64,000 bases of DNA from an uncultured virus (IMG/VR IMGVR_UViG_3300025011_000036) (IMGVR_UViG_3300025011_000036), one strand, 5' to 3'; shown: positions 1,415-42,930, counted from the stretch's first letter. Notes: generated by a model from the letters alone, not told the origin. Numbers and translations: made by a program.

Positions 1415-2146
1415 TTGGCTTTAGATATGCCGATTAGAAGAGAAAAGATTACAACGTATGAACAGGCGTTTAGATTAATTCATGTTTCGGTGACAGGAAA
1501 AGCAATGTTTATAGTTAAGGATTTAGAGAAACAGGGACACAATGAGAAGAGTATTTCTTTTGCAATATGGAAGTCGTCGGAAAAACTATGCGGATTAAGA
1601 AATGACCCAAGGTTTGAGAGTATTTTTATTAACGAGATAAGAAAGTGGTCATGGCCTAGCGGTGATCCTCGATGGAAAGAGTTTCACAAGAAAAAAGAAG
1701 AAGAACTTAAAGCCATTGAATTAGATAAAATTGAAAAAAAGAGAAGAAATCAGGAACAATCTTACAAAAAGAGATATCCTGGTTTTATTTATTTTATACA
1801 GGGTGAATCCGGTGGTTCCGTAAAGATTGGATATGCCGCAGATATTACAAAGCGGATAAAGACATTACAGACAGGTTTCCCAGAAACTCTAATTATCGTT
1901 AAATCATTTCCGGGGAACATAAGCGATGAGGGCGGATTCCATGAAGAGTTTAAGGATTTTCGCATAAGGGGCGAGTGGTTTGATCCCATAGTATTGGAGA
2001 GTGCCGATATGGTTGTTGGTAAGATCCAAAAGGATAAGCAGTTTTGCTGCAAAAAGTGTGGTGGAGAGGAGTTAATGAATATCTTCGATGAAATGGGATT
2101 AGTTGGACGCGCTTGTGTGAGGTGTGGATTATTGGTGAAAGCTTAA
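1415..2146 (+). CDS. GIY-YIG family nuclease (T5orf172/MUG113-like)
   Basis: 'GFIYFIQ...VKIGYA..ITKRIKTLQTG...RIRGEWF'. Confidence 0.8.
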   Translation: MALDMPIRREKITTYEQAFRLIHVSVTGKAMFIVKDLEKQGHNEKSISFAIWKSSEKLCGLRNDPRFESIFINEIRKWSWPSGDPRWKEFHKKKEEELKAIELDKIEKKRRNQEQSYKKRYPGFIYFIQGESGGSVKIGYAADITKRIKTLQTGFPETLIIVKSFPGNISDEGGFHEEFKDFRIRGEWFDPIVLESADMVVGKIQKDKQFCCKKCGGEELMNIFDEMGLVGRACVRCGLLVKA

Positions 2147-2217
2147 TCGTTCCTCCCTTAACCCCTTCTTCCAAACTTAAACCCTTGATTACAAGCCCAA
2201 TTTCAGGAGGAAATAGC

Positions 2218-2391
2218 ATGTCTGAAAACCGAGCATGTAAAGTATTTGATCCAAAAGACCCTACTTACGGCAAAACCAACTGCGCTTCATGCCTCGTATT
2301 CAACGGAACAACCTGCAAAGACGAACCCTATGTGATGGCAATACATGAACCCGCAACAATTATCCATACCGGATGGTGTAACCATGGCTAA
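2218..2391 (+). CDS. Small Cys-rich hypothetical protein
   Basis: AGGAGG SD before ATG 2218. Confidence 0.55.
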   Translation: MSENRACKVFDPKDPTYGKTNCASCLVFNGTTCKDEPYVMAIHEPATIIHTGWCNHG

Positions 2392-2426
2392 TATAGATAT
2401 CTCTATTATTATTGGAGGTGATGCCA

Positions 2427-3940
2427 ATGCCCAACATTGATATACGCATAAGTGCTAAAGTGTTCAACAAGATATACATGCCATGCCTAGAGACTGATTT
2501 CCGCTATGAAGTATACTATGGTGGAGCCTAGCTGGATCGGGAAAGTCGGTATTTATAGCGCAAAAGTACATCTATAAGATGCTCAAGCAAAAGATGAATC
2601 TGCTAGTCATACGGCAAACTGGTGATTCTAATAGAGATTCGACGTTCGCCTTATTAAAGCAAGTTATAAACGAGTGGAAGGTTGATCACCTGTTTGTTGT
2701 CCGCGAGTCTGATCTTCGCATAACATGTAAGGCAAACGGTAACGCAATGTTATTTAAGGGGTTAGACGATGTAGAACGTTTGAAGTCCATAACCTTCTCT
2801 AAGGGCGAGTTGACTGATGTGTGGATAGAAGAGGCTAGTGAGGTTGAAGAGTCAAGTTTTAACCAATTAGACATTAGGCTTCGTGGAGGAAAACAGAAGA
2901 AACAGGTCATTATCTCCTTCAATCCCATTAACATAACTCATTGGCTCAAGAGGTTTGTCGATGATAAGCAAGAGAATAAGATGTCACTACATACCACCTA
3001 CCATGATAATAAGTTCATTGACGACGAATACAAGGCTCTCTTGGAGTCGTACAAAGAAAAGGACCCTTATTATTATGACGTATATGCTTTAGGTCAGTGG
3101 GGCGTTTTAGGCAAAACCATCTTCAATGCTCACAAGGTCAATGAACGTCTAACCCTAGTCCGAGACAGATACCCGGTCAAGCAAGGTTCCTTCACATATG
3201 ATTATGTGGGAGAGAGAATAGTAGAGTCATCTATTCGTTGGGTAGAGTCGGACGATGGATATATAACAATCTACGAGGATGTCATACCAGGCCTAACCTA
3301 TGGCATTGGTGGAGACACATCAGGAGATGGATCAGACTACTTCATAGGTCAGGTTATAGACAATACATCAGGTAAGCAGGTAGCGGTCCTTAGGCATCAA
3401 TTTGATGAGGACTTATACGCAAAGCAAATGTACTGCTTGGGTAAATACTTCAACTGGGCACTCATTGGTATTGAGACAAACTACAGCACATACCCGGTCA
3501 AAGAACTTCAACGCCTTGACTACCCAGAACAGTATATTCGAGTAGTAGAGGACACCATAAGCCAAACAACACAAAAGAGGTATGGATTCCAAACAACTAA
3601 GCTAACAAGACCAATTATTATTGCCGATTTAGCCTGCATCGTTCGAGAGCAAACGGAGCTTATAAACGATCCTGAAACCCTGAACGAAATGCTAACCTTT
3701 GTTCGTAACAAAAAAGGCAGACCCGAAGCAATGCCTGGTGAGCATGACGACCTTATCATTGCCTTAGCAATAGCCTACTACATCAGGGAACAAGGTATTA
3801 TTAACGGCACGATCGTAGCGGCGGTAGCAAGGAATACGAATACAACAGTTAATCATGACTACCAAAACGGAAAACATTGGTCGGAGATAGAGGATGAGCA
3901 GGACGAAGAAGGAAGTTTCATGAAAGGTTGGGATTCCTAG
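2427..3940 (+). CDS. terL: Terminase large subunit (PBSX-type), interrupted by a 5-nt stop-containing insert in Walker A
   Basis: GGAGGTG SD + ATG 2427. Frame 1 reads ...YEVYYGGA* (TAG 2529-2531). Frame 2 resumes GSGKSVFIAQK at 2534 and continues into Walker B 'DVWIEEA' and nuclease 'HDDLIIALA'. Confidence 0.92.
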
Positions 3941-4114
3941 ATGGCATATGCAGAACCTTTTAATCGTTTATGGATGAATGACATTTACTATAAACCAAGG
4001 AGAGTAGAACTAAGTGAAAAAGAGTTGAGAGATTTAAGGTTATTAAGATCAATGGGAGTACGGGAAGCTAGTCAAAAACTGGCTGACTATTCCTTTAATA
4101 AGTATCTAAGTTAA
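3941..4114 (+). CDS. Small hypothetical protein (57 aa)
   Basis: ATG immediately after terL stop; fills the gap. Confidence 0.45.
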   Translation: MAYAEPFNRLWMNDIYYKPRRVELSEKELRDLRLLRSMGVREASQKLADYSFNKYLS

Positions 4115-4127
4115 TAGGAGGTCCATC

Positions 4128-4403
4128 ATGCCAATACCCCTAACAATCACAATATGCTTAACCTTAACCCTTGCGATAACAGCAGGGTCTTTTTATTGGG
4201 GTAAATACATCGGCATAACCCTAAAAACTTCTGCCGATAACCAAACTCGTATCAACCTAGCCACAAAGCAAATCGAGGAAATGGCTGAAGCGATCGAACA
4301 GCTTAACTATCAACTCGATAATGACAAAAGGGAAAAAGCAGGCTATCAACCACAGAAGCAAGGATGGGACCCGTCTAATCCTCTTAGCTCGGAAAGAAGG
4401 TGA
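4128..4403 (+). CDS. Membrane-anchored coiled-coil hypothetical protein
   Basis: N-terminal hydrophobic helix; AGGAGG SD. Confidence 0.6.
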   Translation: MPIPLTITICLTLTLAITAGSFYWGKYIGITLKTSADNQTRINLATKQIEEMAEAIEQLNYQLDNDKREKAGYQPQKQGWDPSNPLSSERR

Positions 4404-4407
4404 GTAA

Positions 4408-6282
4408 GTGAAGGACAAGCCGATTGACATAATAGATGCCAATACTAACGTTAACGAATTAATCCAAACCGAAGAAGAAAAGAAACTAGCAATGCGAGTT
4501 CAAGAGCTATTTACAGCCTCTTATAATACTAAAAGCCAACTTAGAAAGCCTGATATATGGAAGAAGTGCGATGATTACAAGCACAACCGGCAGAACCCAC
4601 CAAAGAGCGATATAGATCCCGGAAGCGTGACGAATATCATTCATTCCATCATAGAGGCGATGATTGCCGACTTGGTGGATAAGCCTATTGCTGTAGAAGC
4701 GAAAGGTCATGAACCATCAGACCATTTATTAGCCGAGCAATCAAAGCATATGCTTGAATTTGTGCTAAACCGAAACAGGATTAAGTCAAAGCTCAATCAG
4801 TCTGAACATGATCGGTTAGAGTTGGGAACAACAATATTGAAGGTATATTTCGACCACGACGCTTTAGGTGGCAGAGGTCTTCCGATCGTTGAACCAATTT
4901 CACCTGCAAACTTCTTTCCAGACCCAAAGGTACAGAGTTCTCACCTACTCCAAGAAGGCGAGTTCATGATTCACGCTGTACCGAGGCCGCTATCATGGTA
5001 CAGGAAACAATGGCCGGAGCGCGGTAAATATGTTCAGCGTGAAATATCTGTGCCGTATAACCCTGAGATATTCGAGGATCAAGGGTCTGATGAAACCGAG
5101 TTAACGACTAGCCAAAAGGCGTTACTCCTTGAATGCTACATGAAGGATAATGATGGTTCCACTTACTGTCTACATGTGGCAAATCACATTCTGCTCGAAG
5201 ATTCCAGAAAAGTTCTGAACGGTAAAAAGGTCAACAGACGTGATCAATTCCCCTTCGTCTTGATCCCCTGCTACATCCAGAGAGGGCAGATATGGGGTCA
5301 ATCAGACATTGAAATGCTTATTCCAACTCAGGACATCATAAATGAGATGGACGATAACATAAGAATTACAGCACGCCTTATGGGTAATCCTCAAGTTGTT
5401 GTAGGGATGGGAGCCGGGCGTTCATTTGATTACCGCAAGTGGACAAACATGCCGGGTCTTAGAATACCAATGAGGGACATTAACGCTTGGCGCATTGTAG
5501 AACCATCTGGTGTTTCAGCAGACATTATCAATAGGCGTGAAAAGGGATTTCAGGAAGCGAACCTTATATCGGGGAGAACAGACTTAACCACTGAGCAAAC
5601 CTATGGAGCAGTTAGGGCGGCAAGTGCTATTATAGCCGTTCAGCAGCAAGGTCAAAAAGGAGTTAACCATAAGGCCGAGATGTTCAAGACTGGCTGGGGA
5701 GAGGTTCTTGAACTCATTATGGATGAGATAATAACTAATTGGGATACCGAAATGTGGTTTAGGATTGAGGGGGAGAAACCGGACTTTAGATTCTATGACC
5801 CTTCAAGATTGAGTGTGGTTCCTCAAATGATTCCAGATCAAAGACCTGTTTTGGATGAGAATAACGAACCTGTCATTGGGCTTGATGGTCCCGAAATGGA
5901 ACACTTCATCAAACCATTAGAGGACGAAGAAGGAAACAAAATGACAAGAGAGGTACAATTAGACCTCTCTTTATCTATGGGTAATGGCTTGCCAAGCGAT
6001 AAGGCGTTTATGTATCAGACGGTCGTGGAGTTATCTAAGGCAATAATTGATGGTCGTTCGGTTATTACATGGAAAGAATTCCGCGAATACTTACGTTCCG
6101 AAGTCGGATTACCGTTGGATGATGACGTAAACATTCCCCAACTTCAATTACCTGGTATGCAGGGGCAACCTACGATTCCGGGACAAATACCAGGACAAAT
6201 GCCTATTCCGAACACTGATAATATGAATGGCCAAGAAGGGCAGATGAATAATATTCTTTCTTCATTGCGAGGTGATGGTTAA
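4408..6282 (+). CDS. Portal protein (P22/podovirus-like)
   Basis: 624 aa after terL; 'FFPDP', 'FPFVLIP...WGQSDIEMLIPTQDIIN', Q/P/G-rich tail. Confidence 0.85.
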   Translation: MKDKPIDIIDANTNVNELIQTEEEKKLAMRVQELFTASYNTKSQLRKPDIWKKCDDYKHNRQNPPKSDIDPGSVTNIIHSIIEAMIADLVDKPIAVEAKGHEPSDHLLAEQSKHMLEFVLNRNRIKSKLNQSEHDRLELGTTILKVYFDHDALGGRGLPIVEPISPANFFPDPKVQSSHLLQEGEFMIHAVPRPLSWYRKQWPERGKYVQREISVPYNPEIFEDQGSDETELTTSQKALLLECYMKDNDGSTYCLHVANHILLEDSRKVLNGKKVNRRDQFPFVLIPCYIQRGQIWGQSDIEMLIPTQDIINEMDDNIRITARLMGNPQVVVGMGAGRSFDYRKWTNMPGLRIPMRDINAWRIVEPSGVSADIINRREKGFQEANLISGRTDLTTEQTYGAVRAASAIIAVQQQGQKGVNHKAEMFKTGWGEVLELIMDEIITNWDTEMWFRIEGEKPDFRFYDPSRLSVVPQMIPDQRPVLDENNEPVIGLDGPEMEHFIKPLEDEEGNKMTREVQLDLSLSMGNGLPSDKAFMYQTVVELSKAIIDGRSVITWKEFREYLRSEVGLPLDDDVNIPQLQLPGMQGQPTIPGQIPGQMPIPNTDNMNGQEGQMNNILSSLRGDG

Positions 6283-6545
6283 TGGCCAATGAAATGACAG
6301 CTCAGGAGGAACAATATTGGTTGCACTCGCTTAGTGGGGACCCCTTGATTGGGTCTTTTTTACGTACTCAGGGTATGTTTGGTGATCCAAGGATACGCGC
6401 GTTAAATCAACCTGTCTGTGGGCGATGTCAAAAACTTTCTTTGTGGCATGAAAATGGTGCTTTATGTCCTAGTTGTGGTCATTTAACCCCTAAAAATAGT
6501 AGTTATAAGCTCAAGACGCATCTCAAGGAAGGTTGGTATAAGTAG
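6282..6545 (+). CDS. Zinc-ribbon hypothetical protein
   Basis: CxxC...CxxC; coupled to the portal stop. Confidence 0.6.
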   Translation: MANEMTAQEEQYWLHSLSGDPLIGSFLRTQGMFGDPRIRALNQPVCGRCQKLSLWHENGALCPSCGHLTPKNSSYKLKTHLKEGWYK

Positions 6546-6565
6546 ATGAAAGGTGGTAATTATCA

Positions 6566-6751
6566 ATGGAATGTCCTGGAAAAGGTAAAGGAAAAGGTAT
6601 GATGGTCAGCGTAATGGTTAAGAAAGGTGGTGGCCCCATGAAAGGCAAGCCAATGATGGATGACGATGAATACAAAGCAATGCCAAAAGGTCCAATGTCT
6701 AAAAAGACTATGGCTAAGTCAGCGCCAAAGGGCAAGGCTAAGAAAAAGTAG
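6566..6751 (+). CDS. Small Lys/Met/Gly-rich basic protein
   Basis: AAAGGTGG SD; low-complexity basic sequence. Confidence 0.6.
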   Translation: MECPGKGKGKGMMVSVMVKKGGGPMKGKPMMDDDEYKAMPKGPMSKKTMAKSAPKGKAKKK

Positions 6752-6945
6752 AATTGGCAATAGGTAAAGGGTAGATGTATCCTGCGTTTACTGAAAATCT
6801 TTATCAGGTGATCAAGGATAATCCGAATATATTCAGCCAATTGACGAGCTAGGAATAGCTCTTTTTATATTCCTAAAATTGACACTCGGAAAGACGAGAC
6901 GGGCGAAACGATGGGATGCCGCCATCAAATTATGGAGTGATTACA

Positions 6946-7797
6946 TTGAAAAGACTTTTATCCATGAACTTGCAGAAATTTGCTGAAACGGTCGTAGATG
7001 TGCCTGACGACGAGGTGCAAACCACAGAAACCACGGAAGAAACTGAAACCGCTGAGACTACCGAGGCAGAGGAAACAACCGAACCTACGGAGTCTACCGA
7101 AGTTGAAGAAGACACTGACGATACCTACGAACTTCCCGAGCTGCCACCTGAACAGAAAAACGCCTTCCAGAAGCGTCTTGAACGCGAACAGAAGAAGATT
7201 CGCGATCAAGTAGAAGCTGAATCAATTGCAAAGTACGCCAAGCATCAAAAGATCATCGATTCCCTTGGTGGCGATCCTGACGCAATCGAAAAGGCTTTCC
7301 AGGAACAGGCATGGGCGAAGGAAGCTGAGGCTCAAGGGTACGCAAACCCCGAAGAGTCTGCATGGTATATCGGGCAGAAGAAGCAACAGGCCGAACTTAA
7401 TGAACTCCGAGTCAAGGTACAAATCAATGAACTGAAGGACGATCCCCTTTATGCCGGAATCAAGGGTTCGGAGAAAGAGATTCAAGCATTTATGACTCGA
7501 ACAGGTTCTACGGCTAAAGAAGCATACTGGGCAATAGGCGGAGAAGCCCGGGCGCAACAACTCAAACGAGAGGCCGAGCAAAGGGCAATCGTTAAGAAAG
7601 CTCAACCAAAACGTACTGTTCAGTCAGATAGTGCAACGGGTGATGCCGGGGCATTGCCTCCGTTACCTGCTGATATCGAGGTACAGCGTAGGCAGATGGG
7701 CATTTCTCATCAAGAAGCATTGGATCTGCTCGGTTCAGACTATGCCAACATTGACGACTATCGTAAACAAAAACAACTTAAACAGAAGAAAGGATGA
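6946..7797 (+). CDS. Capsid scaffolding protein with N-terminal Prp-type cleavage motif
   Basis: GGAGTG SD + TTG 6946; 'MKRLLSMNLQKF|AET', acidic T/E-rich N-terminus, coiled coil; lies before the capsid gene. Confidence 0.8.
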   Translation: MKRLLSMNLQKFAETVVDVPDDEVQTTETTEETETAETTEAEETTEPTESTEVEEDTDDTYELPELPPEQKNAFQKRLEREQKKIRDQVEAESIAKYAKHQKIIDSLGGDPDAIEKAFQEQAWAKEAEAQGYANPEESAWYIGQKKQQAELNELRVKVQINELKDDPLYAGIKGSEKEIQAFMTRTGSTAKEAYWAIGGEARAQQLKREAEQRAIVKKAQPKRTVQSDSATGDAGALPPLPADIEVQRRQMGISHQEALDLLGSDYANIDDYRKQKQLKQKKG

Positions 7798-7803
7798 TAT
7801 TAA

Positions 7804-8247
7804 ATGGCACGTTATTTATATTCCGCACTAACAGGTACTAACGATCCGAAGGCGAGCACGCTTAAAATCGGAGCAAGTCAAACCATAGCGATTGGAGATG
7901 TCCTGGCGATTGATGCAACAACTAAGCGAGGCATTGCCGCGGTTGGGGCATCTACAGCACTATATGCCATTGCTGGTGCCGCAATTACCACGACTGCAAG
8001 TCCTACTTCTGCAGATAAGATTCCGGTCACTCTGCTCAAGGGTGCTGTTATCCGTATTCCGTTCATTACGACAGGGACAAAGAAGACCTTCGCCGACACT
8101 GATTTGTTTATCACAAAGTTCGACCTGAAGGACAAGGTATCCGTTGACCCTGACGATGTAACAGGAGGTATGTGTCACATTATTGACTACGACAATACCG
8201 CTTTGACCGTAGATGTCGTGTTCGACGATGCAAATTTAGTTTATTAA
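7804..8247 (+). CDS. Putative capsid decoration/cement protein
   Basis: 147 aa, beta-rich, between scaffold and major capsid genes. Confidence 0.6.
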   Translation: MARYLYSALTGTNDPKASTLKIGASQTIAIGDVLAIDATTKRGIAAVGASTALYAIAGAAITTTASPTSADKIPVTLLKGAVIRIPFITTGTKKTFADTDLFITKFDLKDKVSVDPDDVTGGMCHIIDYDNTALTVDVVFDDANLVY

Positions 8248-8264
8248 GAAGGGAATGATTACCA

Positions 8265-9149
8265 ATGCCAATGAATACAAGCCAATTTCAAAACCTTTAC
8301 TTGAAGAAAATAGATAAAACCTTTTTCGAGGCGTGGGATGAAGAGTCTGAGCAATGGTCCAGATATCTTAAGGCTGAAACTTCTAGCCAGAATGCTGAGG
8401 TAACTCAGAACTTCGCCGGAATCGCTAAGTGGTCTAAAAAGGATGAGCTCGCCAACCCAACTGAACAAAAGTTCAAACTAGGAGACATTATCACGACTAC
8501 GCATCAACCGTTTGCCGTCACTGTGGTAATGAGTCGTGAGCAAGTTGACGATTCCAAATACAAAGAAGTGGAAGGTATGACCCGTGATGCTGGACATGCA
8601 GGACGGGAAACCCTTGAGTCTGAATGCATCGGAGTCCTTGATAATGCCTTTACTGTTAATCAGTACGACGGAGTTCCTTTGTGTTCTGACTCGCATCCTA
8701 ATCGTGGAGATGCAGGGGGTGTTCAAGACAACCTGCATTCTGGCGCATTGTCGGACGCTACCCTGAAAACAGGATTAACCCTCTTCCGTCAGCAAAAGGA
8801 TGAAAGCGGAAAGCAGATTCTCGCTCGTCCGAAAAAGCTTATTATTCATCAATCCAAGCAATTTTTGGCGGCTACTATCCTGCAATCTACTCTGCAATCC
8901 GGAACTCCTAATAACGACAAGAACGTCCTTCCGGCCCTTGAAATTGTTGATCTCGACTTTATGTCTTCTACTACTGCATGGTTCTTACAGGGTTCTCGCC
9001 ATGGATTGGTGCATTATTTCCGTGTTAAACCTGAGTTTATCCGAGAAAAGGAAATGCGCCAGAACGGTAGTTGGGTGTGGAATGGATACTTTAGACATAG
9101 CACGAGTGTAGAAAATTGGCGCATGTTTTTAGGATCGCCGGGAACCTGA
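8265..9149 (+). CDS. Major capsid protein (HK97 fold, Mu gpT-like)
   Basis: 'YDGVPLCSDSHP', 'QKDESGKQILARPKKLII', 'WRMFLGSPG'; size and position. Confidence 0.85.
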   Translation: MPMNTSQFQNLYLKKIDKTFFEAWDEESEQWSRYLKAETSSQNAEVTQNFAGIAKWSKKDELANPTEQKFKLGDIITTTHQPFAVTVVMSREQVDDSKYKEVEGMTRDAGHAGRETLESECIGVLDNAFTVNQYDGVPLCSDSHPNRGDAGGVQDNLHSGALSDATLKTGLTLFRQQKDESGKQILARPKKLIIHQSKQFLAATILQSTLQSGTPNNDKNVLPALEIVDLDFMSSTTAWFLQGSRHGLVHYFRVKPEFIREKEMRQNGSWVWNGYFRHSTSVENWRMFLGSPGT

Positions 9150-9196
9150 TAAGATAACATTGTAGGAAATCCTGGAGCTTAATAAGTAGCAAAAAT

Positions 9197-9220
9197 AGGA
9201 GGGGCTTATTCCCCTCCTTC
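9197..9220 (+). terminator. Hairpin after capsid gene
   Basis: aggagggg-cttatt-cccctcct. Confidence 0.55.
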
Positions 9221-9295
9221 TCAATGGGTCATTTATCGAAAGATATTCAAAATATAGTTGGACAAATGACCCATTACGTTCGAGGCGGTGAAACG

Positions 9296-9619
9296 ATGAC
9301 CACTAAATATCCTGCTGCAATAGATACATTTACAACTAAAATTGACTACGTTAGCCCTATTATCGCAAAAGATATGAATGACGTTCAGGACGCTATTGTA
9401 GCGGTTGAAACTCTTCTAACTCATACTGTCGAGGAAGTAGGAAATATATCCACTACTAGAGCTACTAATGTTCAAATCGTAATCGGAGCGACATCAATTA
9501 ACATCTTCAGGGACGGAGAACAAGAGTCGTGGGTGGCAACAAGGGATTCACGCGATAGGTTTTCAACTCTAACAAGGGGAGAAAGCACAATAAGTATAAC
9601 TTACCCTCCGGAGGTGTGA
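9296..9619 (+). CDS. Hypothetical virion-associated protein
   Basis: GAGGCGGTG SD before ATG 9296; 'YPAAIDTF...DMNDVQDAIVAVE'. Confidence 0.55.
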   Translation: MTTKYPAAIDTFTTKIDYVSPIIAKDMNDVQDAIVAVETLLTHTVEEVGNISTTRATNVQIVIGATSINIFRDGEQESWVATRDSRDRFSTLTRGESTISITYPPEV

Positions 9620-9622
9620 TCT

Positions 9623-11293: not shown

Positions 11294-11317
11294 GAAACTA
11301 ATAAAGGTGGTGATAAT

Positions 11318-13572: not shown

Positions 13573-13583
13573 GTGGCATAACC

Positions 13584-28664: not shown

Positions 28665-28823
28665 TTGGAAATTAGGAAAGAATATCGTTGTAAGAAATGT
28701 AATAAATTATTGGCGATCGAGGTAGACGGACAACTTCAGATCAGGTGCGTCCAGCGCGGGAAACATACTGACGGACACAAATGCGACACAATTTTAACTA
28801 TTCCACTAAATAGGATAATGTAG
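28665..28823 (+). CDS. Mu Com-family zinc-finger regulator (52 aa, absent from ORF track)
   Basis: MEIRKEYRCKKCNKLLAIEVDGQLQIRCVQRGKHTDGHKCDTILTIPLNRIM; AAGGGG SD. Confidence 0.7.
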   Translation: MEIRKEYRCKKCNKLLAIEVDGQLQIRCVQRGKHTDGHKCDTILTIPLNRIM

Positions 28824-28863
28824 ACTTCGCGGCGCTCCTTTATTTTAGGAAAGGAGATAAAAT

Positions 28864-30186: not shown

Positions 30187-30247
30187 TTTTCATAAGTCTC
30201 CCGAAATCCTTCGAGATTCAAAGATTGAATTAAGGGAGGTAATAATA

Positions 30248-31591: not shown

Positions 31592-31709
31592 GAAATATGG
31601 GAAGAAGTCGCGGGGGCAAGGCACAAAGCCAAGCTATTACATTATGGGGTAATTAATTAAATATCTTTACGCAGGTCTCGAACCTCTGAATTAAAAGGGG
31701 GTTTTTTCT

Positions 31710-34184: not shown

Positions 34185-34235
34185 TAATAACGGCTGTCAT
34201 TCGTGGCAGCCTATTTCCTTAAGGTGGTGAAATAG

Positions 34236-35189
34236 GTGAGAAGCGGTTTCGCTGGAATATATTACCCTCAGACAGCAACTGAACAAACAAGCGTTCCTAT
34301 AGGTAAAATGGCCTTACTATCAGGCGAAACGGTAGTAAAAGTGAAACTAAGCGATGGAACATTTATCCCGTTAGGTGGCATAACCGACATTACTGACTTT
34401 GGTAGGGACTTAATTGACCTGCCGAATATAACAGAGCTAAAGATATTGTTAGGTACGGCTACAGCATGGCAACCAACGGCATTGACTAGGCGAGTAGATG
34501 TTGACTTTACTAATGTAAGCCTTGGAGCAATTGCAAGCATAACTAACACTGGTTCTGTCGGAGCAACATTTTATCAAGCAACAGAAGCCGACAAGCCTAC
34601 AGGCATAGATTTCCTGACATATAGGGGAGCTTCATTTGATGGAACTAATCATATGACAAGTGAAAATGCATGGAACGTAACAGCAAACTATGCGTTCTTT
34701 ATTGTGTTTTCTTATGATGCAGAACCACCAGAACAACAATACTTATATAGTGGTTTTTCTGTACTTACTAGCAAGGTTCCTCATACTGTCGGGTCTCGTA
34801 ACACGTCAGGTAATCTAATAGGAGCAGCACACTTCGTTAACGATGTATGGCATTCAGGCAACGGAAGCTCGGCTAATTATGGCAGCATTGACTTTGTGTA
34901 TTGTTCTTATGACGGTGCTAATTTTCATACTAAATTCAATGGTAGAACAGATTCTTTGGTAGCGGATGCAACAGCTCCAGACGTTGGATACAATACACTT
35001 GGAGTTATTGGTGCATCTGATGAGTATGACAAAAATCTTAAAGGTAAAATTTTTAGGGTTATAGGATTTTCTTCACATCAATCTGATGCTGATATAGCCA
35101 AAATGGAAGGATGGGCAGCGTGGGCATTCGATAGAGTTAGCGAATTGCCAACAGGACACACATACAAAACCATTAGGCCAATAATATAA
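34236..35189 (+). CDS. Shorter lectin-like paralog B2
   Basis: N-terminal 'YPQ.ATEQ..VP.G' and C-terminal 'EGWAAW...LP..HTY' shared with 31710. Confidence 0.65.
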   Translation: MRSGFAGIYYPQTATEQTSVPIGKMALLSGETVVKVKLSDGTFIPLGGITDITDFGRDLIDLPNITELKILLGTATAWQPTALTRRVDVDFTNVSLGAIASITNTGSVGATFYQATEADKPTGIDFLTYRGASFDGTNHMTSENAWNVTANYAFFIVFSYDAEPPEQQYLYSGFSVLTSKVPHTVGSRNTSGNLIGAAHFVNDVWHSGNGSSANYGSIDFVYCSYDGANFHTKFNGRTDSLVADATAPDVGYNTLGVIGASDEYDKNLKGKIFRVIGFSSHQSDADIAKMEGWAAWAFDRVSELPTGHTYKTIRPII

Positions 35190-35236
35190 GGCGGCTTTAA
35201 ATGAGTCGCCTACTTATTTTTAAAGGGAGTGATAAC

Positions 35237-35428
35237 TTGAAAGGCACTAAAAAATGCACAGAAAACGAAACTAAGCACAAAAAAGAACTATTAAGAATGT
35301 CTTCTGAAAATCGACGGCATGGTTTAGCGACCGTTAAACTTGCCAAAGAAGAAGCAAAGGCCGCTAAACCGGGTAAGTCTACTAAACCAATGAAGCCCAC
35401 GAAAACTATGAAGATGGGCAAATATTAG
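35237..35428 (+). CDS. Small Lys-rich basic protein
   Basis: GGGAGTG SD before TTG 35237. Confidence 0.5.
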   Translation: MKGTKKCTENETKHKKELLRMSSENRRHGLATVKLAKEEAKAAKPGKSTKPMKPTKTMKMGKY

Positions 35429-35437
35429 GAGGTATAC

Positions 35438-35620
35438 ATGTTAGAACGACTTAGAAGACCTGCACTGGCAATAGCTATTTTAGGTTCCGTGAAATTGGTG
35501 ACTGACACGTTTGGGATATCAATATTAACCAACGAAAGCATTAACGCTATCGCCAATGGTGTTGCTGCAGTTGCTACTATTGTTGGGATTCTGATTAATC
35601 GAACAACTACAACGGAATAA
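35438..35620 (+). CDS. Putative holin (two TM helices)
   Basis: 'MLERLRRP..AIAILG...IVGILIN'; AGGAGG SD. Confidence 0.65.
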   Translation: MLERLRRPALAIAILGSVKLVTDTFGISILTNESINAIANGVAAVATIVGILINRTTTTE

Positions 35621-35636
35621 AATATTTTCCTTCCGA

Positions 35637-35680
35637 ATAATCCCTTCTGTTCTTAATTGAATGGAGGGGATTATTTTTTA
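35637..35680 (+). terminator. Intrinsic terminator ending the late operon
   Basis: ataatcccttct...ggaggggattat followed by a T-run. Confidence 0.7.
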
Positions 35681-35714
35681 TGCCTAAATATAGGACATAC
35701 GGGGTCTTTATTGC

Positions 35715-35743
35715 TTGTATTCATACACAGTAAGTAGTATAAT
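35715..35743 (+). promoter_or_regulatory. SigA-type promoter
   Basis: TTGTAT-17-TATAAT. Confidence 0.6.
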
Positions 35744-35768
35744 TAACGTATAGAAAAGAGGTGTTTTA

Positions 35769-35897
35769 GTGAAAAGGATTGACTTGACCATCACAGACAC
35801 ACAGCGTGAATGGTTGGAGAAACTAGCTGAAAAATTAGGAATAAGTAAATCTGAGATTGTAAGAAGAGTTTTAGATAAGGAGATGAAAAAGAAGTGA
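35769..35897 (+). CDS. CopG/ribbon-helix-helix protein (42 aa)
   Basis: MKRIDLTITDTQREWLEKLAEKLGISKSEIVRRVLDKEMKKK; GAGGTG SD. Confidence 0.75.
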   Translation: MKRIDLTITDTQREWLEKLAEKLGISKSEIVRRVLDKEMKKK

Positions 35898-36006
35898 CAT
35901 CTAAAGAAGTGATGGAGTTTACTATGTTCGGTTCAGGTATTTTATATTACGCAGCGTTTTGTTTCTATCGTCAATGGATGCAAAATAAAGAGGAGATGAA
36001 AAGGAA

Positions 36007-36750
36007 ATGAGGACGATTGATTATCCAACCAAAACTCAGGAAGAATATGACCAAAGCTGGCTTGAGCGCAGGAAATTAAGAACGGATAACAAAGCCCTTC
36101 ACAGTTCTAAAGAGAGCGTTAAGGATGATGAATTATCCACAGAAATACTTAATTACTGGAACTCAAAAGGAATAATTGTTCATCGTAAATACTCAAAAAG
36201 AACGCCACTTATACTAAGAAAAATAATTAAGGATTACTCTAAGGAAGAGATATTAAAAGCAATTGATAATTATGTAACAGTTATCAACGATAATAAATAT
36301 TTGTTTGATTACAAATGGAGCCTTGAAACATTTTTGCAAAAACCAAACGCTTTTCCTGATTTTGTAGATGGAGGAAGCAAGTGGTTAAGTTATCTGGCGT
36401 CTATAACCATAAAAGACAAACCTAGAAAAGAGCAACCGACTTTAATTATTGGACCGAATGATAAGGTTATAATTGCCAGTAGCGACTTTCATTCTATTGA
36501 AGAATCATACTTAGCGATGATTGACGCTTTTAACCGTATGCCATACGGTGAATACTTACAGACTTCTCATTGGTTACATTTTAAAGGAGAAGCATTGAAA
36601 GATGCAGGTTTTAAATGCCGAACGTGTTGCAGTAAAGAAACTGTCCTGAATGTACATCACAATAATTATAGTAATCGCGGTCGAGAGACATTTAATGACG
36701 TTGTTGTGTTATGCGAAGTATGCCACGCCAAATTTCATAATAAAGAATAA
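36007..36750 (+). CDS. Phage initiator-like helical domain fused to HNH nuclease domain
   Basis: 'EILNYWNSK...EEILKAIDNY...SLETFL' + 'CRTC...LNVHH..Y...DVVVLCEVCHAKFH'. Confidence 0.65.
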   Translation: MRTIDYPTKTQEEYDQSWLERRKLRTDNKALHSSKESVKDDELSTEILNYWNSKGIIVHRKYSKRTPLILRKIIKDYSKEEILKAIDNYVTVINDNKYLFDYKWSLETFLQKPNAFPDFVDGGSKWLSYLASITIKDKPRKEQPTLIIGPNDKVIIASSDFHSIEESYLAMIDAFNRMPYGEYLQTSHWLHFKGEALKDAGFKCRTCCSKETVLNVHHNNYSNRGRETFNDVVVLCEVCHAKFHNKE

Positions 36751-36837
36751 TATTAATCATTTTGCTACAGAAGGGATTATGGCTAACCTGGTATTTGAGG
36801 CAGGATTACGTTAGGAATAAGCGAAGGAGATGTATAG

Positions 36838-39800
36838 ATGAGAGTCTACAGAATGTGCAATATGGACCACGGCTACGGTCCGATAACAACAAATGAAGAT
36901 GATTGCATAGTGGAAATCGAAGAGGATTTAAACGAAAACGGAGAAAACGAGGAACAGGATTACATTAAGTCCAACTTACCCAAAATTAAGAAATCCCTAA
37001 AATCATTACCCATAGTAGGAGATATTAACGATGCTATTGCGATTGTTGTTTTCGGACCATATATGATTCAGGCTGAGGAAATGACGCAAGAGGAATATGA
37101 TAGTTTTCCTGAGTTTGATGGGTATTAATTATTAAAGAAATAAAGAGAAGGAGGAAGTAAGCATGGGAATAACAATAAGTTCAAAAAGGCATAGTTGCGA
37201 CATGGGGTATGGTGGTTTCAATAGGTTCAGGAACGTGGTAGCTGAAAAGGTTAGTAAGAAATTTAGTGAACATTATGTAAGAATGGATATACCAGAGGTT
37301 ATGTTTTTAAGCGGAAGCAATAGGCAGGATTTCTTTAAAAAGTATAACGCAACCACAGAGGAACTTATAGAGCAAAAAGAAGTAACGGAAGAAGTTGCTA
37401 ATTTCTTATACCAAACGGATTGTGGCGGAAAGATAGACAGAAAGCAAGCCAAGGAAATTTATTCACTGATTAAAGAGTACGACGATAATATTAGCTTTGG
37501 TTATTCGGGCAGAAAAGATTGTGCCAAAATGTCAGACTTGAAGAATGTTTTTTCCGACGGCACAAAGGTTGAATGGAGTTAAATTGAAGTGTTAGGACAT
37601 TTGATAAATAAGTGAAGGATGAAGAAGTAGGATGAGGGAAATTAAGTTTCGCGGCAAAAGGGTTGATGGTGGGGAATGGGTTGTAGGCTTTATTGAACTT
37701 CACTTGATTGACGGTGATTTGACCAAAATAAAGCAGGACGCATTCATTACTTACGATTACATGGATAAAATAGGAAAAGTTTATCGAGATAGGTTTGATG
37801 TCATCCCTGAAACAGTCGGGCAGTTCACAGGATTTTTCGACGATAATGGCAAGGAAATTTATGAGGATGATATCTTGACTCAGAAAGGTTATTGGCCATT
37901 AAGAATAGAGTTTCAAAAAGGTATTATGTGGGTCCGTGACTTAGAAAGAGTTCGCTATAACAACTTAATATTAAATACACCAATTGCGCTGTTTGACTTT
38001 AGCGGATACAAGATTATTGGAAATATTCATGACGACACTGAATTATTGGTGATTTGGAAGGAGAAAATAACCGAATGAAAGAAAATAAGGAAGCGATTAA
38101 CTTAAACACTCCCGACTATCTAAAGGGATTGCATGACGGTTATATAAAAAATCGTACAGATTACTTCGAGCAATACGGAAATTTAGTAGCGGAACTAGAT
38201 AGCCAAGTTCCAAGACAGTATATTATTAAGACGGAAACAAAAAGCGAAATGTACAGAGCGTTGAAAGCGTGTGAATATTATTTATGTAGAATGTCATTTG
38301 TTGACGAGGAATTATTAGAGATGGTTCGAAATGCGTTAAGGGAGGCGGATGGCAAAATATGAACTGTCAATCCTGCAACGAACCAACTAAATACATCCTT
38401 GGACTATGGGATGGATCAAACGGAACTCATGGCGCAATATTCGACTGCCATAATCTAAGTTGTGAAATAAACAAGAATAGGTTAAAGGAAGCTGATCGTT
38501 CCGAGGAAAATAGAAATAAGGTCATTGATGAAAATGCGAAGAACGGTATATTCATGGAGTTAATCAAAAGCAGGAGGAAGTCGCTGCTTATCACCATTAC
38601 GAAGATGTCTCGATTACTTGGCATATCCCCTGCAACATATAGCGATTATGAGATGTGCCGGGTTGCGCTGCCTGTGGAGATGGTTGAGAGGATTGAGGAT
38701 GTTTTTAGAAAGGAGATGGGAAAATGTTGAACGATTATGACCTGTATGCGATATTTTGGATAGGATTATTTTCTTGTATAGCAATAAGTAATATCGCGTC
38801 AAATCTACAACCAAGAATCATAATAAAAAAGGATGATATTAATAATGACTAAATACCAGCACTACAAGGGTGGCATGTACACTCTCCTTCACATAGCAAC
38901 TCATTCCGAAACAGGAGAACAACTCGTAGTGTATCAGAACACAGAGGGTAAGGTGTGGATTAGGCCGCATGATATGTTTTTCGAGGATGTTGTTGTGGAT
39001 GGTGATAGAGTGCCGAGGTTTAGGGAGATAAAGGAGTACACGAAGGATAGAGAGGATGGAGATTGGTCGCTTGATTGGGAAGATGCTATTTCTGAATCAA
39101 GGAAGATGTTGCCTGTCAAAGAAATATTGTAGGGGGATGAAGTATGATAGGTAGTGATTGGGTTCCTGATTGGGAAGATTGCGAGGGTGCAAAGGAAAAG
39201 ATTGGCTTAATAATATTTTATATTGTCATAATTGGAGCGATTCTTGTTCAACCATTTTACCAAGTATATCTAAGGATCAGAAGGAGAAAGTATTAATGAG
39301 TGAACGAAATGACAGTATAGAAAGAATTATAGAACTAGAAAACGCGCTAGAAAACTTGCTGAGGCAATGCCGACAAACAAGCGATTCGATGGGACACAAG
39401 GGAACACGCAGAATATTTGCCAGTGATTATTTTATGATGGTGTGGGAAGAGGCTAGGGAAGTGCTTGGTATTAATCTCGAATTAAAAGAAAGCATTGCGG
39501 TTGCAGATAAGTTGCAAAATGATTTAACTAGATTAGGCATAAAGTCGGTCATAGATATGGCAAGCGGAGAACTTGTTATAAATATTGCGGATAACTTAGA
39601 TTTTGGAAAATCAATATTGTAGGAGGATGAAGAGGGATGAGCTTAGAAGATATCCTAAAAGCACAAAAATATATAACCAATATCCGTGATGAAAATGTTA
39701 TCGTGTTAGATCATTTCAAAAAGGAGATTGAAACGAATAAGGATAGCAAATCATTTTACAACACATTGGTTTACGACAACAGGATAAAGAACTGCAATAC

Positions 39801-39984
39801 GATTTTGGAAGCACTCGGAAAACAAGTACCTATGAAACCAATTATAGAAAAGTGGAATCCTGCGCGATGTCCTTCCTGTGGAGAATCATTAAGTGAGAGT
39901 GCAGGAGATGGGTATTATCGACATAATTACTGCCTAAATATTTGCGATTGTGGTCAAAGGTTAAAATGGGAATATACAAAATAG
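36838..39984 (+). other. Array of small early accessory genes, including YopX (37632..38078), Zn/XRE-HTH (38359..38730) and DUF1653 (38833..39132)
   Basis: YopX 'MREIKFRGK...ETVGQFTG..D.NGKEIYEDDI...IGNIHD'; DUF1653 'YQHYKGGMY...HSET.E.LVVY..WIRP..MF'. Confidence 0.75.
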
Positions 39985-39991
39985 CACAAAC

Positions 39992-40019
39992 AAATACCCT
40001 CCAACTAGGAGGGTATTTT
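39992..40019. terminator. Bidirectional terminator
   Basis: aaataccctcc-aacta-ggagggtatttt between convergent genes. Confidence 0.7.
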
Positions 40020-40137
40020 CTATTTCAAGTTAGTCAACTTTCAAAAGCCTACAAAGCAACTTCCCAACCCGAACGGCAACGGCATAGATCGCCAATGCCT
40101 CCACTATAATAAATACACTCGCCATAATTATCCCTCC

Positions 40138-40533
40138 TTAAACATATTCCCCACCCATTCGACCATTCGTCGCTTTAGACATGTACACGGTACCGCATTC
40201 CAAACAAGTTAAGCTGATTATGTCGTAGTCCTTGCCGTGGTTCTCCTTCTCGGTGCGTAAGTATCGAGCCTCCTTTGTCCCAGATCCGCATCCTGGGCAC
40301 TTGTTGGTCACTCTTGCCCCTTCGATCGAGATAATGGGTAGATCCTTATAGTACTGAATAATTCTGACTGAATAATCGAAGATAGGCATCCTATGAATAT
40401 TGGGATACTTATTGATAATTTGGGCTATCCAGCGCATTAAATTGTTCCGACTACATTTACCATGGGCGTATAGATTGATGAGCTTGTGGACGTGTTCACG
40501 GTCCTCTAAGGTGGGAAATTTTATTGCTAGCAT
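40138..40533 (-). CDS. Zinc-finger hypothetical protein
   Basis: AAGGGAGTG SD; CPGC...CLEC. Confidence 0.6.
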   Translation of the reverse strand: MLAIKFPTLEDREHVHKLINLYAHGKCSRNNLMRWIAQIINKYPNIHRMPIFDYSVRIIQYYKDLPIISIEGARVTNKCPGCGSGTKEARYLRTEKENHGKDYDIISLTCLECGTVYMSKATNGRMGGEYV

Positions 40534-40628
40534 GTGTTCACTCCCCTTTTTTGTCTGATGATAAGGTATATGACCATTTGGGTATAATATGACTAATCGG
40601 TCATTAATTGAGTAAAAAAATATAGCCC

Positions 40629-40817
40629 TTAATCGGGCCATAAGTAATCGACAGTTTCCTCAAGTGCTTTCGCTATTCGCTTTGCAACAAAAAGAGAAAG
40701 ATTTGGTTTTAAATCATTTTCTATTAAACTGATGTGTCGTTGGTTTACTTTTGACAATTTCGAAAGATCATTTTGAGTCAGACCTCTTTTAAGTCTAACC
40801 TCCCGGACTCTATTCAT
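40629..40817 (-). CDS. XRE-family HTH regulator
   Basis: 'RLKRGLTQNDLSKLSKVNQRHISLIEN...IAKALEETVDYL'. Confidence 0.8.
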   Translation of the reverse strand: MNRVREVRLKRGLTQNDLSKLSKVNQRHISLIENDLKPNLSLFVAKRIAKALEETVDYLWPD

Positions 40818-40892
40818 ATTCATCACCACAGGAAATATATTCCACATAGAGGGGTAATACCCTGCTTGCATAAAAAATATTGCCATCAAGTT

Positions 40893-40942
40893 TGTTGTAC
40901 TAATTAATCACTACCAACGGGAAGTGGAGAACTAGTACAACA
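40893..40942. other. Putative attP of the serine integrase
   Basis: 50-bp imperfect inverted repeat TGTTGTACTA...CACT..AGTG...TAGTACAACA directly after the integrase stop. Confidence 0.65.
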
Positions 40943-40944
40943 TA

Positions 40945-42277
40945 TTAAATAAAAAAAATATCAAAATGCTTTTCATTGTCGATCTTAATTTCTTTTATTA
41001 TTCCTCTCCATAGAGTTCTCTTTTCTGTTTTTTTCAAAGTAATATAAATACTCCTGAAATCACTCTGAAGGAAATCCCTAAGTCCCTGTACATCAATTTT
41101 TTCAGATGGAGTCTCGTTATTCTTTAGTTGATCAGTGTACATATCGAAATCCTTTTTATACTCATCAATGTCAATGAGATTGTTTATATAAAGCTCCTTT
41201 AGCCTAGTTAGTTTATTTTTTATTACAGATTTATTAACCTTAGGTTTCTTTTGTTGCTCAACTTTGATTTCATAGTCAACGATATACGAATTTATTTCTT
41301 CTTCAATGTGATTGATTAAATATTCTTCAACGTAGTTCTCGCTAACGGCATATTTACGAGTACACAAACGTCTTTGAACATATTGATAACAACGATAATA
41401 TTGATATTCTTTATATCCATTATGTGTCATCGCTCCGGATAATCGGCTACCGCATTCAGTACAGGTAAGTAAACCGGAAAAGATATAAATTCTGTCGGTT
41501 TGATTTCTACGATAAGTCTTTCTTTTTAATATTTCTTGAACATTATCAAACTGCTTAATTGAAATAAGTGGCTCACAAAAATCTTTAACGTTTTGGAATT
41601 CTCCTTTGTATAGTGAGTTAGAAAGTACCCTTACAACGGAAGAGTAAGATAAATTAACGTCATATTTATCTCGTATATAGGTGATAGTACCCCTTCGGCT
41701 TTGGTTTAGCTCAAAATGATTAAATATTTCTATAACTAACCAAGTATTATCATTGTCATGCACCACATGTTTTTTCTCGATCTTCAGTCCAATTGGGATA
41801 GAACCGGTAATAGCTTCTTTTCGTTTTACTTTATTTTCGAAAACAAATTTGATGCGTTCGCTTGTTCTGTCAGATTCATCTTGAGCCACTGATAGCATGA
41901 TATTAATATGTAGCCTACCACTGGCCGTTGTGGTGTCGTAATTCTCAAGGATAGCCCTCCATCCCACGTTATGCTTATCTAATGTTTCTTGGATTTTATA
42001 ATAATCCTTAACACTTCTAAACCAACGATCCATTTTCAGGAAAATGATCAAGTCAAGTTTTCCGGCCATAACATCGTCTATCATCCTCATAAATTCTTTA
42101 CGGCTACTGTACGCCTTCCTGGCCGTTTGTCCTTCATCTACATATGTATCTACTATTAACATGTCATGCTCTTGCGCATACTTCGTGAGAGCTTCTTTTT
42201 GTGACTGGATGGAATATCCGTGATGAGCCTGTTCCAATGTGCTGTCAAACCCGAATGTATATAGCTACTCGCATCAT
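40945..42277 (-). CDS. Large serine recombinase (integrase), interrupted by 4-nt TGAC insert at the catalytic motif
   Basis: MMRVAIYIRV*; after 4 nt, STLEQAHHGYSIQSQ. Resolvase 'KMDRWFR', recombinase domain, Zn ribbon 'CTECG..YYRC' and coiled coil are intact. Confidence 0.9.
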
Positions 42278-42930
42278 TCAGTGATCATCCCCTTTTTTAT
42301 TCTATGGTGCTCCATTGCATGTTCTCTATGCGACTGGAACAACCTCAAATTTTCTATTTCATTATTTACTTTGTCTTCATCAATATGATGGACAATTTCA
42401 TTATCAGTTAAGTATCTCCCAAGTAATTCCTCCATAACTAGCCTATGCTGGTAAACGTAACCACGATTATCACAATGAGGGTGACTGGGCATTTTAATTT
42501 CTACATAGCCATTTCCCTTAATATGTTTACCTCCTTTCCAGTTTCCGCTATTTTCACCTTTTCTACCGTGTGAAGCCTTTTCTGCCTCTGGCATTACTCT
42601 TCCCTTAGACCAATGGCACCCCCTGGTTTTAATTGTTGCTTTTAGCCTTTCACTTTGTTCTCTCTTGTATTCATCAGTGAATCTCAGGCCATACATCCCA
42701 TTCTTTTCCCCTGATCTGTCATAAATCTTTAACGCTTCTTCCAGACTGCGCGTTTCGATATTATATTTTTTTAAATGACTATGAATGGTCATGGCGGTCA
42801 CATTAAGTAATTTTGCAATATTCGTACATCCTAATTTTTCGTTTGTGTAAAAATTGTTCAAGGTTTCCTTTAGATCTCTTCCTTCGTCCATAAACCTAAT
42901 TTCTAATTTTGATACAGCCATAATATACAT
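42274..42930 (-). CDS. HNH homing endonuclease (NUMOD3-like + HNH_3)
   Basis: 'GEKNGMYG', 'NWKGG', 'YVYQHRLVME..LGRYL...EIVHHIDEDKVNN.IENL'. Confidence 0.88.
   Translation of the reverse strand: MYIMAVSKLEIRFMDEGRDLKETLNNFYTNEKLGCTNIAKLLNVTAMTIHSHLKKYNIETRSLEEALKIYDRSGEKNGMYGLRFTDEYKREQSERLKATIKTRGCHWSKGRVMPEAEKASHGRKGENSGNWKGGKHIKGNGYVEIKMPSHPHCDNRGYVYQHRLVMEELLGRYLTDNEIVHHIDEDKVNNEIENLRLFQSHREHAMEHHRIKKGMITE

Follow-up and report, generated by a model that had tools for sequence, protein, structure and literature searches.

Stop-led micro-insertions in the terminase and integrase genes of an uncultured phage: candidate bypassed coding gaps associated with homing endonuclease genes

The stretch of DNA analysed here, referred to as the window, is the full 64,000 nucleotides (nt) of IMGVR_UViG_3300025011_000036, a sequence from an uncultured virus. 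Catalytic motifs of two of its genes are each interrupted by a few extra bases: the Walker A motif of the large terminase gene (terL) by TAGCT and the RVS motif of a large serine integrase gene by TGAC. On the sequence evidence, we lean toward reading both micro-insertions as coding gaps that are bypassed by the ribosome and that would represent the footprint of homing endonuclease cassettes, in which they would have an immunity role.

The terL locus

The window approximates a near-complete phage genome, with genes for a portal, a capsid protein, long tail proteins, lysis, recombination and replication detected among the 87 open reading frames (ORFs) scanned. The terL locus comprises the following features.

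1415..2146, + strand: putative free-standing homing endonuclease, GIY-YIG-like (Pfam T5orf172, E 1.6e-07; MUG113, E 4e-09)
2427..2528, + strand: terL 5' segment, 34 codons from ATG, with GGAGGTG upstream; take-off codon GCC at 2526-2528; encodes ..YYGGA of Walker A
2529..2533, + strand: terL coding gap TAGCT; stop TAG at 2529-2531, candidate landing codon GCT at 2531-2533, a synonym of the take-off codon GCC
2534..3940, + strand: terL 3' segment, from GSGKSVFIAQ... to the stop; its frame is +2 with respect to the 5' segment (Pfam Terminase_3, E 1.6e-49, PBSX-type)

The 5' segment (MPNIDIRISAKVFNKIYMPCLETDFRYEVYYGGA, 34 codons, MPNID...RYEVYYGGA) is followed directly by TAG at 2529-2531 and aligns with the N-termini of intact relatives. 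With TAGCT left out, terL reads YYGGAGSGKS, which is the form of the intact relatives, and Walker A is continuous solely when the gap is skipped. In ungapped homologues the flanks of the coding gap are contiguous, with YYGGAGSGKS or GGGGSGKS running across the insertion point. The original prediction had placed a stop directly after the last intact codon of both terL and the integrase; on re-reading, the coordinates and letters of TAGCT and TGAC were correct, with TAG following GCC and TGA following GTT.

Several other routes to a complete TerL were considered and rejected. The Terminase_3 gene was present in a single copy and no duplicated terL N-terminus was found among the 87 ORFs, as had been noted before, which leaves no second terL. 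Separate N- and C-terminal polypeptides are unlikely because there is no conserved start codon after the gap and the first P-loop glycines are encoded upstream of it. A -1 frameshift was rejected since the 7-codon overlap contained no slippery heptamer in the window or in the gapped relative L018, and tRNA-Ala would not be expected to re-pair at -1. A changed genetic code was rejected as well: TAG is an ordinary stop that ends 9 of 59 ORFs in the window, and a recoded stop could not mend a frame shift. No tRNA genes were found in the window, so a phage-encoded suppressor or expanded-anticodon tRNA is not available.

Loss of the extra bases at the mRNA level, through editing or an unknown splicing step ahead of translation, is very improbable. 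Rfam gave no matches over the whole window at the gathering threshold and none at E values up to 1 over 1300-2800 (terL site) and 42100-43150 (integrase site). No conserved structure was found around the gap, and the codon-like constraint on the gap and its obligatory stop, described below, point to the ribosome.

Persistence of the terL gap in independent sequences

The TAGCT sequence was identical in seven IMG/VR contigs that differ at neighbouring bases. Logan contigs from four runs of four studies (groundwater, soil and sediment) that span 2483-2573 had no indel at 2529-2533, at a depth of up to about 59, and the same gap is carried by a related complete genome of 65,756 base pairs (bp) with direct terminal repeats. 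Among strain single-nucleotide polymorphisms in the terL body, all 25 differences listed from the four runs fell at third positions and were synonymous when read in the post-gap frame (another eight were not displayed). The large genes of the window other than terL and the integrase were intact in the ORF scan.

The original prediction had allowed for a defective element or a low-quality assembly. The sequences are indeed metagenome assemblies, and its mention of single-base lesions elsewhere was confirmed in one case: the dCMP deaminase gene (58443-58712) has a 1-nt insertion near 58458 (AGTTATATCC vs. AGTT-TATCC), which is not stop-led. The related complete genome G002 (L129) has an intact copy; the identical contig G004 (L128) shares the lesion. 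Because the same terL gap occurs in independent contigs and the listed polymorphisms are all synonymous, the terL gap is not an artefact or a product of decay. The intact state of the other large genes and the finding below of a single frame class that always begins with a stop agree with this. For terL, sequencing or assembly errors and a decaying defective prophage are thus refuted, and for the micro-insertions generally we give such an explanation negligible weight.

Searching a cultured-phage collection at the DNA level gave nothing close to the terL region and only weak matches to the integrase, and the DNA of two other gapped lineages likewise had no close cultured relative in that search. 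A protein search returned 1151 phage records, all with less than 60% identity; the two top matches inspected, from THSA-485A and a Helicobacter pullorum prophage, both had an intact Walker A motif.

Recurrence of stop-led gaps in terL

Three collections were scanned with one narrow pattern per gap length. The 5-nt pattern (TAY GGN GGN GSN, five free bases, GGN WSN GGN AAR WSN NNN TTY) gave 28 matches (13 viral, 4 genome and 11 metagenome), of which 25 were terL; L089, L090 and L094 were set aside as chance matches without terL-like flanks, as judged from flanking translations only and without a family search. A stop came first in all 25 terL gaps (TAG in 22 and TGA in 3), though the inserted bases were unconstrained by the pattern. 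The stop-led pattern in terL is thus far beyond chance. The 25 contigs, some of which are the same record in two collections, represent 10 types, some of them related (the window, L070, L072, L080, L087/L097, L088, L091, L093, L095 and L100). With two free bases only L018 was found. Scans with one or four free bases gave no gapped terL, all matches being intact genes read in another frame as judged by flanking translations only. Since the 5- and 2-base scans gave stop-led gaps and the 1- and 4-base scans gave none, these frame-breaking gaps belong to one frame class and always begin with a stop.

Relatives of the TerL body added three further types, each broken at exactly the same codon boundary: L047, which like L033 and L037 reads GGT-TAGGC-GGC; L018 (63% identity), which reads GCG-TA-GGT; and L034, which has an in-frame gap, GGT-TAA-GGA. 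The total was therefore 13 gapped terL types, 11 of which have 5-nt gaps, and all 13 have a stop (TAG, TGA or TAA) directly 3' of the take-off codon.

The 5-nt gaps themselves are codon-like. The combinations of take-off codon and gap were GCC/TAGCT (three types), GCT/TAGCT, GCC/TAGCC, GCC/TAGCA, GCT/TAGCG, GCC/TGACT, GCC/TGACC, GCA/TAGTT and GGT/TAGGC. The fourth base of the gap was the middle base of the take-off codon in 10 of the 11 types, and the fifth base took T, C, A or G. The last three bases formed a synonym of the take-off codon in eight types, ACY in two and GTT in one. With the gap skipped, the P-loop has the same length as in intact relatives in all types except L018, which needs a shift of +2, and its TA looks derived because its relative L091 has the 5-nt form. 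The GGT TAA GGA of L034 has the 9-nt layout of a one-residue "stop-hop".

The same anatomy could be read by a +2 shift at the stop, in which UA or UG is skipped, GCU is translated and the P-loop gains one residue (YYGGAAGSGKS). This would be a single rule for all frame-breaking types, L018 has TA alone and obtains its canonical loop by +2, and GGAAGSGKS, as read from the sequence, still matches G-x4-GK[ST]. Against it, the loop length is fixed in intact relatives, the triplet after TA or TG would give Ala, Thr, Val or Gly depending on the type, L034 (TAA) is in frame and cannot be read by +2, and the TA of L018 is the form that looks derived. On these points, we consider a plain +2 shift unlikely.

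Phylogeny and selection on terL

In a tree of 37 TerL body rows, the gapped rows require at least five state changes. A well-supported clade of five rows (L034, L070, L100, L087 and L097) was gapped throughout, and close relatives without a gap exist, for example L006 and L032. Within the all-gapped clade, the 33 codons upstream of the gap had nonsynonymous substitution rates (dN) of 0.17-0.33 and synonymous rates (dS) of 0.97-2.4, similar to the 33 codons downstream. Because dN is well under dS in these codons, the short 5' piece of terL appears to be still translated and constrained in lineages that have long been gapped. The substitution pattern indicates that purifying selection acts on terL on both sides of the gap.

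Endonuclease genes beside gapped terL

A GIY-YIG gene had been predicted close to terL. The ORF at 1415-2146 does end there, 281 bp before the terL ATG, and matches T5orf172 and MUG113; the Pfam GIY-YIG model itself gave no match. T5orf172 family members are treated as homing endonuclease genes in PMC10055350. Of the 13 gapped types, 6 have an endonuclease-type ORF as the immediate upstream neighbour of terL, vs. 1 of 21 ungapped loci (Fisher p = 0.007), counting Pfam-supported ORFs of at least 90 amino acids (aa) on the same strand within about 1.8 kb upstream of terL, where endonucleases that Pfam does not recognise would be missed and three of the ungapped loci (L032, L036 and L038) are near-copies. 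The upstream genes are of different families: T5orf172/MUG113 in the window, NUMOD3 in L047 and L093, and NUMOD4 and HNH_3 with a NUMOD1 or I-HmuI-like domain in L070, L087/L097 and L095. The sole ungapped locus with an upstream endonuclease, L020, has a plain HNH.

Comparison of L047 with its ungapped near-twins showed about 830 bp with the endonuclease ORF inserted between terS and terL, in addition to the 5-nt gap. Relative to L032, 35 of 94 positions were mismatched in the 100 nt before the gap and 2 of 100 in the 100 nt after it. The sharp change in divergence indicates that a conversion tract in L047 terminates at the gap.

It is quite unlikely that the gaps are instead regulatory recoding sites controlling how much TerL and integrase is made, or when, for example by sensing release-factor activity, with the nucleases coincidental or secondary. 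No recognisable endonuclease was found nearby in 7 of the 13 gapped terL types or at the second gapped integrase, L126, described below, which would fit such a role. UGA-C and UAG-C are weak termination contexts. A regulatory function was proposed for the terminase gaps of phage phiHau3 (PMC10732093). The endonuclease enrichment beside gapped terL, the sharp recombination boundary at the L047 gap and the existence of close gap-free relatives (L006 and L032) argue against it. A regulatory role is nevertheless compatible with bypassed gaps left by homing cassettes and does not exclude them.

Other features were noted around the gapped terL genes. At 2155-2196 of the window, just past the T5orf172 gene, contigs of several runs break off or switch partner, which marks a boundary between variants or one of recombination. 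A small Cys-rich ORF (2218-2391; 57 aa, no Pfam match) lies between the endonuclease gene and terL and is kept in L001. In L018, about 530 nt (1524-2050) between a resolvase gene and the gapped terL contain no ORF of at least 70 aa on the terL strand; this segment could be a decayed endonuclease gene or an RNA. Small resolvase or approximately 200-aa tyrosine-recombinase genes lie directly upstream of terL in L009, L018, L020, L022, L031 and L080, gapped and ungapped alike.

The integrase gap and the HNH cassette

The integrase locus lies on the opposite strand and comprises the following features.

42982..43020, - strand: remnant of the resident integrase 5' end, ATG..YIRVST and then TGA, with Val-Ser ungapped; breaks off after AGCAC
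42274..42930, - strand: HNH_3 endonuclease ORF, 218 aa, within the integrase gene (Pfam HNH_3, E 3.3e-10); its stop overlaps the second integrase start (ATGA)
42248..42277, - strand: second, cassette-borne integrase 5' segment, MMRVAIYIRV, ending with codon GTT at 42250-42248
42244..42247, - strand: integrase coding gap TGAC, made up of the stop TGA and a C; separates the Val codon of RVS from its Ser codon
40945..42243, - strand: integrase 3' segment, STLEQAHHGYS... to the stop; large serine recombinase (Pfam Resolvase, Recombinase, Zn_ribbon_recom)
42986..42990 (left) and 42239-42243 (right), - strand: 5-nt direct repeat AGCAC, which bounds a 742-nt cassette

The abutting HNH gene had been recognised earlier, and the HNH_3 ORF (42930-42274) does overlap the integrase ATG through ATGA. 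A first copy of the integrase 5' end, at 43020-42982, had been missed. This copy, upstream of the HNH gene, reads ATG ATT AGA ACA GCC GTC TAC ATT CGG GTA AGC ACT TGA (MIRTAVYIRVST and a stop), and the second start reads ATG ATG CGA GTA GCT ATA TAC ATT CGG GTT (42277-42248). Because their DNA sequences differ, the two 5' copies represent two alleles, and the duplication of the 5' end shows the HNH gene to have come in as a cassette. The 742-nt cassette consists of a leader of about 60 nt, the HNH_3 ORF and a replacement 5' end of ten codons, the last being GTT, followed by TGA C. Its non-coding part is less than 100 nt with no Rfam intron, and a group I or II intron was rejected since Rfam detected no ribozyme core at either the terL or the integrase site. 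Joining at the AGCAC repeat would restore an ungapped integrase.

The 3' segment begins AGC ACA TTG GAA CAG... and continues as a 430-codon frame with no other lesion; it is 53% identical to the intact L068. With TGAC left out, the motif reads YIRVSTLEQ, and neither candidate start is in frame with the catalytic Ser codon unless the four bases are skipped. A scan for A-x-Y-x-R-V, four free nt and S-[ST]-x-E-Q gave four matches, namely the window lineage, L126 and two copies of a chance match, L125 and L127, which were set aside from flanking translations only. L126, from another metagenome, reads CGC GTT TGTT AGT, that is GTT-T-GTT, which offers a perfect +4 landing at the same codon boundary. 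Its integrase is otherwise an intact 441-codon frame, 37% identical to that of the window over 432 aa with no other break.

The integrase site GUU UGA C resembles the prfB (RF2) +1 frameshift site, CUU UGA C, in having NUU, UGA and C. A prfB-type Shine-Dalgarno sequence 3 nt upstream was not recognised: AUU CGG precedes GUU UGA C, and L126 reads GUU UGU U. A +1 shift would insert Asp before the catalytic Ser, and tRNA-Val would be expected to re-pair poorly on UUU.

The integrase, as distinct from terL, may simply be dead, with HNH invasion having left a frameshift in a phage that no longer integrates or uses another route. We do not favour this but consider it a substantial possibility. In its support, GAC matches poorly as a landing triplet, the copies found do not differ from one another (the region including TGAC is the same in one other contig, L067) such that selection cannot be measured, the related G002 and G003 are without this integrase module, and the accessory dCMP deaminase is broken by a 1-nt insertion in the same strain. 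The 430-codon frame without other lesions argues against it, as does the sole break of the distant L126 at the same codon boundary in a protein intact over the 432 aligned residues. Recoding of the integrase is accordingly a tentative proposal, rated below recoding of terL because GAC mismatches GUU, a +1 shift puts Asp before Ser, and L126 has neither a leading stop nor an endonuclease.

Searches around the integrase gave little else. Relatives of the HNH protein were found only in the same phage, apart from weak repeat-motif matches, and a promoter and terminator scan of 42200-43600 detected fewer promoter-like sites than in shuffled sequences and no terminator. G002 and G003 (L132 and L131) have the same terL gap and are without the integrase, HNH and repressor module of the window. 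Only 49 nt of it match in these genomes, and the lysogeny module is therefore mosaic.

Proposed mechanism and its weighing

From the gaps and the patterns observed around them, we infer hopping, its efficiency and immunity from cleavage as follows. TerL translation would start at 2427 and proceed until peptidyl-tRNA-Ala occupies GCC at 2526-2528 with UAG in the A site. The ribosome would then move 5 nt forward, the tRNA would re-pair with GCU at 2531-2533 and decoding would resume at GGA 2534, giving a TerL with the canonical P-loop YYGGAGSGKS. Such a hop would rely on the stop and a nearby cognate codon without RNA structure, and perhaps on the G-rich P-loop codons (GGNGGNG), which could act as a Shine-Dalgarno-like anchor 5-7 nt before the landing codon. 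For the integrase to be made, GUU UGA C would have to be passed either by a hop of +4 or by a +1 shift of the prfB kind.

If T4 mobA/gene 60 and collaborative homing are taken as models, the gap, located about 100 nt into terL, would break the predicted target of the neighbouring endonuclease, the conserved Walker A DNA. The carrier genome would be immune, and gap-free competitors would be cut and converted. At the integrase, the HNH enzyme may have cut an ungapped resident allele near AGCAC, and repair may have copied the donor HNH gene, the integrase 5' end and the 4-nt gap, with the left end joined without homology. The integrase gap lies 5 nt from the invasion junction and would fall inside any plausible recognition site.

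The original prediction of ultra-short bypassed inserts has been largely borne out for terL by the 13 gapped types and is plausible for the integrase, given the second 4-nt gap in L126. Its further suggestion that the inserts gate packaging and integration found no support; the anatomy suggests rather that they shield the genome carrying the endonuclease from being cut by it.

Several observations weigh against bypassing and against the role given to the endonucleases. Besides the seven gapped types that lack a recognisable endonuclease, strains L001 and L002 keep the terL gap though 491-2155, the T5orf172 region, has been replaced by other DNA. In L001 (1855-2579) the helix-turn-helix protein and T5orf172 genes are replaced by 724 different nt with a 176-aa ORF, and the sequence beyond 2155 is 99.6% identical. 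Because the lineages are related, the number of types does not give the number of independent events. Not every type allows perfect re-pairing: L018 needs +2 and not +5, L080 lands on GTT, and the TGA-led gaps land on ACY. The plain +2 shift that adds one residue fits the terL types nearly as well as a +5 hop. RNAalifold predicted no pairs around the terL gap in the 13 gapped types; because no conserved RNA structure is present, stimulators of the gene 60 type are absent and efficiency may be low. None of the sequencing runs listed as containing the stretch was an RNA run. On the integrase side, gaps are known in two lineages only and the gene could be dead, the landing triplet GAC of the window mismatches GUU at the middle base, and L126 has no stop right after the take-off codon (TGT comes first and then TAG) and no adjoining endonuclease.

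These gaps may belong to a general class in phages, in which gaps of 2-6 nt, made of a T or TA spacer and a near-copy of the preceding codon, would be planted or maintained by free-standing homing endonucleases as marks of self-immunity, within the best-conserved catalytic-motif DNA of essential genes such as the terL P-loop and the integrase RVS, and hopped by ordinary ribosomes without RNA structure. A stop or rare codon would enter the A site with a cognate landing codon 4-6 nt ahead. This wider proposal is plausible from the sequences compared, and we hold it tentatively, as falling a little short of an even case.

Other genes of the window

The window encodes other nuclease-type genes, a second HNH_3 ORF with a sigma-70 region 4 helix-turn-helix and a DUF559/Vsr-like endonuclease, as well as a Bro-N protein. 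The coordinates of these further nuclease-type and Bro-N genes are 43853-44674, 55754-56170 and 44773-45432, and the large ORFs are intact. An ORF overlap at 56950-57002 was examined as a possible frameshift and rejected as an ordinary gene overlap.

Relation to known systems

Natural bypassing is known from few systems: T4 gene 60 and its homologues, the yeast mitochondrial byps and the phiHau3 candidate. As in T4 mobA/gene 60 (PMC5009743), an HNH-type endonuclease gene adjoins a coding gap in a highly conserved enzyme motif, and as in gene 60 the take-off codon is followed by a stop and has a matching landing codon. The integrase has a further likeness to T4: the gene is split by the cassette, which brings a new start with it. 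In T4 the bypass insert blocks self-cleavage by MobA, and MobA elements sometimes lose the nuclease and keep the bypass (bioRxiv 10.1101/2022.08.31.505936), similar to the strains of the window lineage that drop T5orf172 yet keep the terL gap. The gap in gene 60 is 50 nt, whereas those described here are 2-6 nt with no conserved hairpin and no sequence relationship to it. The genes that carry the gaps here are terL and a serine integrase, the endonucleases are T5orf172, NUMOD3 and NUMOD4 with HNH_3, and both cleavage protection and bypass are predictions here.

The large terminase of the Streptomyces phage phiHau3 offers a second parallel (PMC10732093; PMC5009743). It too has short frame-breaking blocks whose flanks are adjacent in ungapped relatives, with a slow-to-decode A-site codon at the 5' end of the block, and these blocks were bypassed in Escherichia coli (PMC10732093). 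The phiHau3 case differs in its 10-nt block, a rare sense codon (UUA) and not a stop, proposed stem-loops, another terminase family and a tie to host tRNA regulation; a link to endonucleases is not mentioned in the available portions of PMC10732093 and PMC5009743.

Collaborative homing in ICP1 (PMC10055350), where a T5orf172 gene lies beside a spliced terL, is similar in that an endonuclease gene adjoins terL, whose short N-terminal part is cut off from the rest of the gene by an interruption located at the target site. Unlike in ICP1, the interruption in the window is 5 nt without a ribozyme, and splicing therefore cannot rescue terL. Synthetic stop-hops with +2, +5 and +6 shifts occurred at a low level in E. 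coli constructs (Weiss et al., 1987, as cited in PMC5009743), and no natural in-frame stop-hop was known as of the 2016 review (PMC5009743). In contrast to the synthetic constructs, the layout described here is conserved in natural essential genes.

Annotation pipelines call such terL genes truncated or broken, and completeness tools may mislabel viable phages as defective. If the bypassing of these gaps is real, they would include the first natural +4, +5 and in-frame +6 stop-hops and would provide a minimal natural system for how far a P-site tRNA moves unaided. The pairing of an endonuclease with an immunity insert of this size, if it holds, would help to account for the concentration of such lesions in catalytic motifs. 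A literature search found no published description of such terL gaps, or of translational bypassing in terminases, beyond the systems cited here. What sets the present gaps apart from those systems is their size of 2-6 nt, the obligatory stop, the lack of RNA structure, the family to which the terminase belongs and the occurrence of a gap in a serine integrase as well. If the proposed immunity role holds, the logic of an endonuclease paired with an immunity insert would extend from introns, inteins and a 50-nt hop to inserts of a few bases.

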